DNA of 48,438 bases from an uncultured bacterium (GCA_903864905.1 CAIPHR010000073.1:1-48438); one strand, 5' to 3'. Numbered from the stretch's first letter, positions 40,315 through 46,122 are shown. Notes: generated by a model from the sequence alone, not told the origin. Numbers and translations are program-made.

Positions 40315-41139
40315 TTATAAAAAAGATACCCGTGGCATCCCCACCTTCACCCTCGCGCCCATTTCTTCACCATCTGACTCGATCTCTAGTGTCCCATGAT
40401 GCGCACGGACGACAGCGCGTGCTACAGATAGTCCGATACCCATACCGATGGGGTTAGCAGACTGCGCGCGTTTACTGCGGTAGAAGTGTCTGGTGAATAG
40501 TTTTTCCCGATCTTCGGCGATGAGGCCGATACCTGTGTTTTCGACCATCATCTCGAATGTGCGGCCGGAAGTGCCATCAACCACTCGCGTCTTGATCTCT
40601 ATCGTCCCCCCATCCACATTGTATTTAACCGCGTTCTCTAGAATGATGAGTAGAACCTCACGCATCTTGCCCGCGTCGATCTCGAGGTCAGGCCAGCTAG
40701 CACCGTCATGCGGGTACACAACTTTGAGATGCATTTTTTCAATATCTATCTTCAATTCATGGAGCACATCCTCGACCAATGGCAGGAGATTACCAGTCTC
40801 GATGTTCAAGATCTGCGAGCCGACCTTGAGCGCGGTGATGTTCAAGAAGTCATCGACGATGCGCGTTAGTCTCTCTACGGCGGTATTGGTATCCGTGAGC
40901 GCCTGGATTTGTTTGGGGTTGAATGTCCCGTATGTTCCACCCAGCATCGCTTCTAACTGCCAACGGATGCTAGTTACTGGCGTACGCAAGTGGTGCTGAG
41001 TGATCATGATGAATTGATCCTTGGTCTCATTTAGCTTCTCCAATTCCCGGCGGGCGTGCTTCTCGAGCCCGTATGCTTTGCGGACTTCGGCGGTCTGTTC
41101 TGCCACTTTTTCGGAGAGGGTGGAGTTGACACGATGCAC
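40315..41139 (-). CDS. 5'-truncated histidine-kinase paralog (DHp and CA domains only; may be a pseudogene)
   Basis: 274 aa, about 85% identical by eye to residues ~290-563 of the HK at 44431-46122. Has the H-box ITQHHLRTPVTSI, N-box ILENAVKYN and GMGIGLSVAR. It lacks the whole TM sensor region. Confidence 0.6.
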   Translation of the reverse strand: MHRVNSTLSEKVAEQTAEVRKAYGLEKHARRELEKLNETKDQFIMITQHHLRTPVTSIRWQLEAMLGGTYGTFNPKQIQALTDTNTAVERLTRIVDDFLNITALKVGSQILNIETGNLLPLVEDVLHELKIDIEKMHLKVVYPHDGASWPDLEIDAGKMREVLLIILENAVKYNVDGGTIEIKTRVVDGTSGRTFEMMVENTGIGLIAEDREKLFTRHFYRSKRAQSANPIGMGIGLSVARAVVRAHHGTLEIESDGEEMGARVKVGMPRVSFL

Positions 41140-41239
41140 ATAAACATTGTAGTCTCATAATTAGATTTAACGGTTGAAACCGCTTGTGCGGAATTGATCA
41201 ATTCACTAACAGTTCACTGACAATCAGTAATACGAAAGA

Positions 41240-44384: not shown

Positions 44385-44430
44385 TTGCCTCAATCAAATA
44401 AAGACTGTTTGAATGATATTAAGCGAATAA

Positions 44431-46122
44431 TCAAAAGTTCGGTAATCTAATCATTACCCTCGCGCCCATCCCTTCACCATCCGACTCGATTTCCAATGTC
44501 CCATGATGCGCTCGGACAACCGCACGGGCCACTGACAGTCCGATACCCATACCGATCGGGTTGGCTTTTTGTGCACGCTGACTCCTGTAGAAATGTCTGC
44601 TGAATAACTTTTCTTTGTCTTCGACCACAAGACCCATGCCACTGTTTTCGATCGTCATTTCGAATATGTGGTGAGAAGAGCCAGCAACATTATCTGCACC
44701 ATCAACCAAGCGATTCTTGATCTCTATCGTCCCCCCATCCACATTGTATTTAACCGCATTCTCTAGAATGATGAGTAGAACCTCACGCATTTTACTTGCG
44801 TCAATCTGTAAGTCGGGCCAACTGGCAGTGTCGTGCGGGTATACAACCTTGAGGTGCATATTCTCGATATCGATCTTGAGTTCATGGAGCACATCCTCGA
44901 TCAATGGCAGGAGATTACCAGTCTCGATATTCAAGATCTGTGAGCCGACTTTGAGCGCGGTGATGTTCAAGAAGTCATCGACGATGCGAGTCAGTCTGCC
45001 TACGGCGGTATTGGTATCCTGTAGCGCCGCTCTCTGTTCAAGGCTAAATGATCCATAGGTACCACCGAGCAGGGCTTCTAATTCCCAACGGATGCTGGTA
45101 ACAGGTGTACGCAAATGGTGCTGAGTGATCATGATGAATTGGTCTTTGGTCTCATTTAGCTTCTCCAATTCCCGGCGAGCATGCTTCTCGAGCTCGTATG
45201 CCTTGCGGACTTCCGCGGTCTGCTCCGCGACTTTTTCGGAGAGAGTGGAATTGAGGGTGGTGAGGAGTTCGCGTTGTTTGGCTTCACGTAGAACCAATCG
45301 GATCAAGTAGATCGCCAATAGCAGGAATATTGAAAACGTCACGACATCAACCCATAAACCCCAGGATAGATTTACGAAGATGTTAATAAAGAAAATCACA
45401 GTCATGCCGATGGCTAGCACTTCAGCGACGACTGCACGAACGTTCATTTGGCGGTATTTAATGATGGAATATGCAATGATAAATATCCAGATTGAACTGC
45501 AGATCGGACCAAGCCAGTTTAGAGAGTAATATTCTATAGAAGGAAGAATAATGTTGCACACTGTTGGGGGAATTATTCCGAGGAATAGTGCCCAGAACAT
45601 CGTCTTGAGATTGGCACGTTGGTTACCCGAAGATTTTTTGTAGGTAAAGAATAGATTTTTTAATGCAATAATCCATAATCCACAAAATGATATTTCAAAC
45701 AACCAGTGCCACGGTCCAAATGTCCAACCCCATGCGCCGATGCCACCAATATAGTTGGATCCTACCAGTAGTAAGTTTGTTGCAAAATATAGATAACCGA
45801 ATATTACTATTGCAAGGGTGGAAACATAAATCGATGTCCTTGGTGGTTTGTTATCATTTGGGTATATGACTGAGAAATGGTAGAAACCGATTGCTATGAC
45901 AATACCGAGCATGTATTGTATACGAATAAGATCATTCGATAGATCCTGCGATAATGTTGTAACGAAGAATGTCTGTGATGCGACCCAAAGACCTGTAAGA
46001 AAGCTAAAACCAGCAAAAACTGAAGATGAAAGATTTCGACTCCCAATCAGTATAACCGCATCAAGGCTGATGATTAGAATAGCAGTTACCAGGATCAATT
46101 CGGCATAAATACTTATTTCCAT
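44431..46122 (-). CDS. Full-length membrane sensor histidine kinase
   Basis: 563 aa with about 8 N-terminal TM helices and a coiled-coil linker. H-box ITQHHLRTPVTSI, N-box ILENAVKYN, G-boxes ENSGMGL and GMGIGLSVAR. Confidence 0.85.
   Translation of the reverse strand: MEISIYAELILVTAILIISLDAVILIGSRNLSSSVFAGFSFLTGLWVASQTFFVTTLSQDLSNDLIRIQYMLGIVIAIGFYHFSVIYPNDNKPPRTSIYVSTLAIVIFGYLYFATNLLLVGSNYIGGIGAWGWTFGPWHWLFEISFCGLWIIALKNLFFTYKKSSGNQRANLKTMFWALFLGIIPPTVCNIILPSIEYYSLNWLGPICSSIWIFIIAYSIIKYRQMNVRAVVAEVLAIGMTVIFFINIFVNLSWGLWVDVVTFSIFLLLAIYLIRLVLREAKQRELLTTLNSTLSEKVAEQTAEVRKAYELEKHARRELEKLNETKDQFIMITQHHLRTPVTSIRWELEALLGGTYGSFSLEQRAALQDTNTAVGRLTRIVDDFLNITALKVGSQILNIETGNLLPLIEDVLHELKIDIENMHLKVVYPHDTASWPDLQIDASKMREVLLIILENAVKYNVDGGTIEIKNRLVDGADNVAGSSHHIFEMTIENSGMGLVVEDKEKLFSRHFYRSQRAQKANPIGMGIGLSVARAVVRAHHGTLEIESDGEGMGARVMIRLPNF

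Follow-up and report, generated by a model that had tools for sequence, protein, structure and literature searches.

The 48,438-nt stretch of DNA analyzed here (GCA_903864905.1 CAIPHR010000073.1:1-48438), hereafter the window, is contig C73 of a metagenome-assembled genome (MAG) of Patescibacteria (1.04 Mb, 97% complete, 95 contigs, GC content 0.39), the close relatives of which are named Candidatus Taylorbacteria in the databases; all coordinates are window positions. The locus under study contains, in the direction of kinase transcription, a full-length sensor histidine kinase gene (HK1), a cassette predicted to produce a ribosomally synthesized and post-translationally modified peptide (RiPP), a 5'-truncated copy of the kinase, a 132-aa open reading frame (ORF) with a restriction-modification (R-M) gene pair, a further remnant of the kinase tail, genes of 163 and 214 aa, and an acyltransferase gene. 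For comparison, 93 genomes of the genus were scanned for additional kinase copies and for a promoter motif, 61 relatives for orthologs, and 36 sampled genomes of the genus for the cassette.

HK1 (44431-46122, minus strand) encodes a seven-transmembrane (7TM) sensor histidine kinase of 563 aa with the Pfam domains HisKA_7TM, HisKA and HATPase_c, and orthologs are present in 59 of the 61 relatives. Codons ~290-555, coding for the dimerization and histidine phosphotransfer (DHp) and the catalytic and ATP-binding (CA) domains, constitute the repeat copy R1 (44456-45254, minus strand), and the second copy, R2 (40349-41129, minus strand), is the displaced DHp-CA module; a repeat search of the window yields the pair as D1 and D2. 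BLASTN of the HK1 gene against the window pairs 41129-40349 with 45254-44456 at 82.1% identity over 799 columns with a single 18-nt gap (E = 0), and in the global MAFFT alignment 652 of 781 ungapped columns are identical (83.5%), the gap being an in-frame indel. Protein identity found by TBLASTN is 83.8% over 272 residues. An initial annotation of the window had described the two segments, by eye, as same-orientation paralogs with about 85% protein identity and one short indel, which agrees well with these values, and the nucleotide identity is far from the generic family similarity (below ~70%) that it had named as the alternative. The similarity of R1 and R2 is indeed above the family level, since the other kinases of the host genome have only 21-43% amino acid identity to HK1 or the truncated copy.

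The truncated kinase ORF (40315-41139, minus strand) has a GTG start and encodes 274 aa with HisKA and HATPase_c only. It has kept the H, N, G1, F and G2 boxes and contains neither stop codons nor frameshifts; the G+C content at its third codon positions (GC3) is 0.62, and exactly the same protein is encoded on five further short contigs. No consensus promoter and no Shine-Dalgarno sequence were found in its upstream region; a scan for consensus promoters and terminators yielded sites no more numerous than in shuffled sequence. The truncated copy is probably silent.

We calculated the rates of synonymous (dS) and non-synonymous (dN) substitutions between R1 and R2 by the Nei-Gojobori method. 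Over 266 codons dS is 0.77 and dN is 0.092 (dN/dS 0.12), and of the 129 differences 87 are at third codon positions. The truncated copy is no more distant from outgroup kinases than HK1 is (79, 79, 76, 76 and 73% identity vs 78, 80, 79, 76 and 71%). The low dN/dS ratio, the intact boxes and the equal outgroup distances indicate that most of the divergence arose under the constraint of working genes. Identity is distributed unevenly, being ~89% in the 5' ~480 nt (a hypervariable DHp patch excepted) and ~74% in the 3' ~300 nt, with a break from 98% to 72-74% at about codon 465-470; exact runs common to both copies measure 43, 38, 32, 32, 27 and 26 nt. A tree of 62 DHp-CA domains places the truncated copy as sister (support by the Shimodaira-Hasegawa-like approximate likelihood ratio test, SH-aLRT, 88) to the clade formed by HK1, P0122, P0123 and P0129 (SH-aLRT 96); in its C-terminal half, HK1 resembles other full-length kinases more closely than it does the truncated copy. 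The last ~90 aa of the truncated copy are near-identical to the kinase P0224 of contig L074, its last ~180 nt having 85-88% identity to that gene compared with 72-73% to HK1. Taken together, the tree position and the uneven identity indicate two alleles with separate histories; to the more specific proposal that R1 and R2 are different alleles, old or foreign, of an exchangeable DHp-CA module of one 7TM kinase gene, we give about even credence.

The hypervariable patch comprises ~35 residues (HK1 residues ~350-385, window ~44970-45070), extending from the end of helix 1 of DHp across the loop into the start of helix 2, as seen in comparison with P0122, P0125 and the truncated copy. All eight differences between HK1 and P0122, a strain variant of it with 97% identity, are within this patch.

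Several explanations for the similarity of the two copies were rejected. A fresh duplication or recent copying between R1 and R2 is ruled out by the dS value, the mosaic divergence and the tree. Recent gene conversion is not compelling, the 43-nt run being only marginally above the expectation for 83% identity (rough P ~ 0.04, uncorrected for conserved motifs), and it is also unsupported by P0122, which has only four of its eight changes in common with the truncated copy. A diversity-generating retroelement with a template and a variable repeat was dismissed as well, given the lack of adenine bias, the prevalence of differences at third codon positions and the 81 transitions among the 129 differences.

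The cassette between the repeats consists of three genes on the plus strand. It starts with the promoter-like element TTGACA-N16-TGTAGTCT (41126-41155), conserved among cassette copies, followed by a gene for a fusion of a SagB-type dehydrogenase and a YcaO cyclodehydratase (41240-43456; 738 aa; Pfam YcaO, PF02624, 150 bits, and Nitroreductase, 62 bits), which scores above the cut-off of TIGR03605 (97.8 vs 78.4 bits) and below that of TIGR03604 (148.6 vs 219 bits). Next is the putative precursor peptide of 44 aa (43495-43629), whose leader is conserved and whose core is rich in Cys, Ser and Gly (CNRSGGACSGGGSCGRR); a precursor of 41-44 aa is kept in all ten other cassette copies compared. The right end is formed by a DUF2268 gene (43710-44384; PF10026, E = 2e-33), whose product is a predicted Zn-dependent peptidase and a candidate leader peptidase. 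Judged by these predicted products, the cassette is a compact RiPP operon of the thiazole/oxazole-modified microcin (TOMM) or linear azol(in)e-containing peptide (LAP) type, as the initial annotation had proposed for RiPPs in general terms.

The three cassette genes occur together in four of the 36 sampled genomes and on further genome and metagenome contigs of Taylorbacteria, in unrelated neighbourhoods. On at least seven other Taylorbacteria contigs the cassette is a discrete unit extending from the -35 box to the DUF2268 stop codon, nucleotide homology to the window starting at 41123-41212 (mostly at 41140-41147) and ending at 44329-44366. No kinase fragment was found beside the cassettes of L041 and L055-L064 in flanks of up to 8 kb (less at contig ends), and therefore the kinase repeat belongs to the site and not to the cassette. 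The TTGACA...TGTAGTCT motif has 15 matches vs one control match in the 93 genomes; it is a real but rare promoter type in the genus.

Three relatives carry a tandem duplication inside the cassette (L043 of G031, 2403-3920; L044 of G018, 7507-9014; L060, 4105-5643). The duplicated unit comprises the last ~30 YcaO codons, the precursor and the first ~100 DUF2268 codons, and gives rise to a second precursor with a different core (…SDTCTGGHTCGNTGV).

At the left junction the TTGACA box (41126-41131) begins before the kinase homology stops at 41129; the two share the 4 nt TTGA, a typical microhomology join. At the right junction, the DUF2268 stop codon (ending at 44384) and the HK1 stop codon (44431-44433) of the convergent genes are separated by a 46-nt spacer (44385-44430), and the repeat homology starts at 44456; the same spacing of 46-47 nt is found on the contigs of P0122, P0223 and P0225. 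The exact flanking of the cassette by the repeats, claimed earlier, thus applies to the left side, while the right side is only approximate. L050-L053, which represent at least three other assemblies, match the left junction at 100% identity from the start of YcaO through the truncated kinase to the 132-aa ORF, and a fifth contig has the truncated ORF and the start region in common with the window with one mismatch in 883 nt. The right junction, including the HK1 3' half, the spacer and DUF2268, is covered at 100% over 923 nt by L076.

L076, which matches window positions 44905-43983, begins with 201 nt (1-201) of unrelated GC-rich sequence joined inside HK1. The contig probably owes this chimeric structure to misassembly.

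Downstream of the truncated kinase lies the R-M island. It includes the 132-aa ORF (39863-40261, minus strand), which has no family match and is absent downstream of HK1 in the relatives examined, and the type II R-M genes for an AlwI-family endonuclease (38016-39761, plus strand; PF09491) and an N6/N4 DNA methylase (37180-38004, plus strand; PF01555). The island is followed by the third kinase 3' remnant (36906-37058, minus strand; …LEIESDDEGKGARVRVKMPL and stop codon), which is decayed and was found by TBLASTN and BLASTN; its segment 36906-36961 and the end of the truncated copy have 87.5% identity. Synteny marks this remnant as the original tail of the resident kinase. The 163-aa gene beyond it (36256-36747, minus strand; weak DUF6624 match) comes after a kinase 3' end in G087 and L074; in G063 the truncated copy lies ~3.6 kb upstream of it. 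The acyltransferase gene (34843-35469, plus strand; PF01553) marks the ancestral end of the variable interval, because in most relatives it is the immediate convergent neighbour of HK1 (synteny seen in L038, L039, L042, L046-L048, L066, L068, L072 and L074). No homology was found between the 132-aa ORF and an Ndt-like ORF of 133 aa that neighbours the truncated kinase of G087.

In most genomes of the genus HK1 is followed by the convergent acyltransferase gene within 18-800 nt, and a second 7TM kinase is encoded upstream. The stretch between HK1 and the acyltransferase gene varies, the other genes there occupying 6 kb in G018, 10 kb in G036 and 9 kb in the window. An empty site is seen on L074, where the full-length kinase P0224, a decayed copy of the 163-aa gene and the acyltransferase gene follow each other with neither cassette nor R-M genes. 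Its flanks have 99.1% (AAA_18) and 92.0% (acyltransferase) nucleotide identity to the window, and the tail of its kinase gene aligns with the tail remnant of the window (84.5% over 58 nt). A relative with a kinase and no cassette at the site, of the kind that the initial annotation had suggested looking for, is thereby available, and further empty sites are present in G006, G013, G033 and others.

Three other relatives show a footprint like that of the window, with different cargo. On L054, which belongs to the nearest relative whose DNA was compared, the kinase P0124 is followed by a 285-aa ORF and a radical SAM gene, a 155-nt kinase tail (90% identical to the tail of P0124 and 93% to that of the upstream tandem kinase) and, 33 nt away, the acyltransferase gene. 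G087 has a truncated pseudo-copy starting from HK1 codon 288, with the H box deleted and one TAG, followed by the 163-aa gene and three further genes (2.4 kb) and by a 128-nt tail (87.5%) beside the acyltransferase gene; the truncated copy of G063, starting at codon ~290, is decayed. The flanking repeats are diverged in every case (83-93%), which fits donor and recipient alleles, because such alleles are expected to be diverged. The kinase repeats and remnants are 56, 128, 155 and ~790 nt long, and their inner ends differ. Among the 93 genomes, additional HK1-type 3' copies were found only in the host genome, G087, G063 and G029, the last with two full tandem genes 67 nt apart. A tandem pair is also present on L054, where a P0127-type gene and P0124 are 22 nt apart and have near-identical DHp regions and different sensor domains. 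Two full-length kinases in relatives, the arrangement that had been set against the insertion scenario, therefore do occur in G029 and L054, which leaves room for a tandem-paralog origin.

In the window, G063 and G087 alike, the truncated copy starts at codon 288-290 and directly borders the -35 box of a divergent TTGACA…TGTAGTCT promoter; this promoter precedes the YcaO operon in the window vs an operon with Ndt-like and DegT genes in G063 and G087. This common junction could reflect either one old join with exchanged cargo or recurrent joins at TTGA, where the family-wide homology starts.

In L034 (G018:C11), a 351-aa ORF at 50-1105 lies directly upstream of HK1, and by eye its N-terminus resembles an IS30-type transposase.

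Exchange of the kinase 3' end is also seen in full-length kinases. Other samples of the same study series yielded P0123 and P0226, whose first ~420 aa have 97-100% identity to P0224. Their last ~145 aa, with the C-terminal tail, match HK1 at 100%, although in the sensor domain they have only 20-30% identity to HK1. Both proteins are, by these alignments, clean recombinants carrying the HK1 3' end, and therefore the 3' module has been exchanged between different kinases. P0129 and the truncated copy of G087 have a further CA allele in common.

The module also differs in composition. GC3 is 0.41 in the 7TM half and 0.57 in the 3' half of HK1, and 0.57-0.62 in the DHp-CA halves, compared with 0.29-0.37 in typical genes of the window. 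A break inside the kinase gene is present in most orthologs (L034-L048, L054, L066, L067, L071, L073, L074 and window 44431-46122 were compared), with 0.17-0.41 in the 7TM half vs 0.46-0.77 in the DHp-CA half (0.17 vs 0.51 in the L074 kinase). Since nearly all orthologs show the jump, it is a property of the family and not a mark of this event, and a foreign origin of the repeats cannot be read from GC content alone. Horizontal exchange of the module and GC-biased gene conversion would each fit the family-wide break. Both the family-wide conservation and the high GC3 begin at codon ~290, where the truncated copy starts; the DHp-CA part from this codon on acts as a separate recombining module throughout the genus.

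We favour, with a probability of roughly 0.5, an origin of this locus by repeated displacement of the kinase 3' module without an integrase, at a hotspot of recombination. DNA from a related Taylorbacteria strain, comprising a kinase 3' module and the self-contained TOMM cassette, would have entered the cell and recombined into the resident kinase gene, anchored by kinase homology. Its far end would have been joined illegitimately at the 4-nt TTGA microhomology at kinase codon ~290, or else a second crossover would have closed the far side. As a result, the kinase would remain intact with a new 3' half, and the resident DHp-CA module, 5'-truncated, would be pushed downstream of the cassette. 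In an earlier round at the locus the R-M island would have arrived, leaving a kinase tail of 56-150 nt, and the same process would have operated in relatives with other cargo. We infer the order of these events, as well as the topology of the incoming DNA and its uptake by transformation. Serial displacement both at this locus and in relatives would make the interval between HK1 and the acyltransferase gene an integrase-free insertion hotspot. For all four islands taken together, this is the account that needs the fewest assumptions. Integrase-mediated or site-specific integration was rejected: the contig C73 has no match to the tyrosine recombinase family PF00589 (the sole match in the genome is on C52), no Pfam recombinase turned up among the ORFs scanned at 28917-48438, the 3' third of the window, and the variable inner ends of the remnants, with no fixed att core, argue against it together with the lack of a recombinase.

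Six observations weigh against displacement. In G063 and G087 the truncated copies begin at the same kinase codon beside a similar promoter with different cargo, which is not predicted by random illegitimate joining. The truncated copy resembles the L074 kinase only in its last ~180 nt and not uniformly. The tandem full-length paralogs in G029 and L054 mean that it could be a decapitated second paralog, and an intact ORF of 825 nt in a genome that trims other remnants could mean a functional copy. For P0123 as well as P0226 the contig breaks off 58 nt past the stop codon, at the cassette boundary, and the HK1 3' end may thus also exist without the cassette, which would uncouple the two. Finally, neither a donor nor an intermediate nor a transcript was observed.

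The tandem pairs lead to the main rival explanation, which we regard as unlikely. Two ancestral head-to-tail kinases would have been present, a cassette with its own promoter would have replaced the spacer and the 7TM half of the downstream gene, and gene conversion would keep the DHp parts alike. The pairs in G029 and L054 with their similar DHp regions, the higher identity of the DHp part than of the CA part, and the combination of dS 0.77 under purifying selection with equal outgroup distances would fit two long-lived genes, one of them recently truncated. The tail remnants of the R-M island, L054 and G087 are left unexplained, however, and would require insertion with duplication anyway; moreover, the contigs of L074 and P0226 show no tandem partner on their visible sides, and tandem pairs were seen in only two of ~95 genomes or contigs examined.

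Whatever its origin, the truncated ORF might be expressed as a soluble, sensor-less DHp-CA kinase or phosphatase under selection, perhaps tied to the divergent RiPP operon, and such a protein could also form heterodimers with HK1. The intact ORF with its complete catalytic boxes, the dN/dS of 0.12 with no acceleration relative to HK1 and the start of the gene at a domain boundary are consistent with this, as is the contrast to the decayed counterparts in G063 and G087 and to the other remnants, which are trimmed to 56-165 nt. We nevertheless find such a function doubtful, as the GTG start is accompanied by neither a Shine-Dalgarno sequence nor a consensus promoter and a low dN/dS can predate the truncation. 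Supposed stand-alone homologues in databases do not help either: the 267-329-aa homologues P0012, P0020 and P0025, considered as a possible stand-alone DHp-CA family, are on long NCBI contigs, and because the 7TM region is open in frame upstream of each, they are start-codon mis-annotations of full-length genes.

In the NCBI records L066, L067 and L068, HK1 orthologs are annotated as proteins of 267-329 aa, again owing to a misplaced start codon, with the 7TM region open in frame upstream. Clear response-regulator receiver domains are encoded at four places in the host genome (contigs C85, C53, C64 and C3), none of them near the three kinase genes or fragments of the window.

Campbell-type integration, put forward in the initial annotation, is quite improbable. 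A circle with the cassette and one DHp-CA fragment would integrate by a single crossover in the kinase gene, giving reciprocal chimeric repeats in a reversible manner. The same-orientation direct repeats around cargo and recombination at the kinase 3' half, as postulated there, are borne out; the identity break at codon ~465-470 would fit a crossover at this point, with the HK1 3' end as the "mobile" allele and the 3' end of the truncated copy resembling that of a near relative, and RecA is encoded in the host genome. On the other hand, none of the other cassette copies, at least seven contigs, carries a kinase fragment, no plasmid, phage or circular form is known here, and 83% identity would make single-crossover integration inefficient. 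The genome also encodes ComEC, and DNA imported via ComEC enters as linear single strands. As to the suggested precise excision, deletion of the cassette by recombination between R1 and R2 is possible in principle, given RecA and exact runs of up to 43 nt, and would produce a chimeric complete kinase, but no excised or deleted form was found in any contig or protein: every contig with an exact protein match has the gene order of the window, and the matches listed from a collection of 5.8 billion proteins include no full-length kinase that ends like the truncated copy.

A misjoining of strain variants of one kinase around the cassette during assembly is hardly credible, for although the source is a 95-contig MAG and the related contig L076 looks chimeric, both junctions recur at 100% identity in independent assemblies (L050-L053; L076) and the gene layout around P0122 and P0223 agrees with that of the window.

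Displacement of the kinase 3' module has parallels in known systems. C-terminal displacement and orphan arrays have been described for Rhs (Jackson et al. 2009, as cited in PMC5361080), and sequential displacement of effector-immunity modules of the type VI secretion system (T6SS) via homology-facilitated illegitimate recombination (HFIR) was reported by Kirchberger et al. 2017 (PMC5361080). As in the displacement arrays of Rhs, contact-dependent inhibition (CDI) and T6SS loci, the full-length gene here would work with a new 3' part, and the old 3' part, lacking start signals, would be pushed downstream along with earlier cargo; a homologous anchor with an illegitimate far join, absence of an integrase and mosaic alleles are common to the proposals. 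Truncated 3' copies separated by cargo, starts at a conserved anchor, empty sites and chimeric alleles, all features of such arrays, are found here. Unlike in these systems, the anchor is a two-component sensor kinase (HisKA/HATPase_c) and not a polymorphic toxin, the cargo consists of a RiPP operon, an R-M system and radical-SAM genes instead of immunity genes, the displaced part is a conserved catalytic module and not a variable toxic tip, and the host is a Patescibacteria member with a genome of ~1 Mb.

HFIR in natural transformation was treated by de Vries & Wackernagel 2002 and Prudhomme et al. 2002 (both as cited in PMC5361080), and transformation can create duplications by alternative pairing of repeats (PMC3784515). 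The locus resembles HFIR in having homology on one side and a 4-nt microhomology on the other, foreign DNA of a few kb and a recipient with RecA and ComEC. Classical HFIR usually deletes the recipient DNA between anchor and join, whereas here the recipient segment would be kept, resulting in a duplication. With Campbell insertion-duplication the locus has in common the direct repeats of the target gene around cargo and the possible reversal by homologous recombination, but the repeats are 83% identical rather than near-identical, the free cassette has no target fragment and no circular form was seen. Regeneration of the 3' end, a partial copy at the far end and tandem stacking are reminiscent of islands that integrases insert into the 3' end of a tRNA gene or a protein-coding gene, from which the locus differs by the lack of an integrase in or near the islands and by repeats of 56-800 nt without a fixed att core.

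The pilS loci of Neisseria are silent partial copies of pilE used for gene conversion. A promoterless partial copy near an expressed full gene and mosaic alleles with a hypervariable patch are seen here, too, but the data demonstrate no conversion tract derived from the truncated copy, with which P0122 has only four of its eight changes in common. Full-text literature searches found nothing comparable. The kind of process is known; to our knowledge, the kinase 3' module as an anchor, the defence and RiPP cargo and the setting in Patescibacteria are new.

Patescibacteria have tiny genomes with few recognisable mobile elements, and their routes of gene gain are obscure. The nested tails, the empty site, the recombinant kinases and the recurrence in relatives point to integrase-free uptake of islands with the target gene kept working, and the islands seen on this route are a peptide-antibiotic operon, an R-M system and radical-SAM genes. 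As the locus also shows, a sensor kinase can have a catalytic half that acts as an exchangeable module with a base composition of its own; this bears on the evolution of two-component specificity. One could speculate further, as a long shot, that the DHp-CA repeats serve as portable homology arms. A linear fragment composed of a kinase 3' half, cargo and a truncated 3' half would then enter single-kinase Taylorbacteria by double crossover, leaving the kinase undisrupted and requiring no integrase; the silent copy would act as a reservoir for switching DHp/CA alleles, and the kinase 3' module as a GC-rich shared "landing pad" for defence and antibiotic islands in minimal genomes. If the repeats did serve in this way, they would constitute a natural recombineering platform usable for genetics in lineages without tools.

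Some further observations were made. An HK1-like subfamily of ~405 aa has the 7TM and HisKA domains and no HATPase_c (G019:C15 9729-10943, on L041; G004:C9; G011:C4; G049:C14; also in G105, G098, G113, G100 and G062), and its member in G019 is located 2.4 kb from a copy of the YcaO cassette. Elsewhere in the window, positions 2899-10344 comprise a single ORF of 2481 aa, which is very large for a 1-Mb genome. A 5.1-kb block between 55-bp direct repeats that start in the 3' end of a tRNA-Asp gene (23578-28840), pointed out in the initial annotation, represents a second, different type of island.

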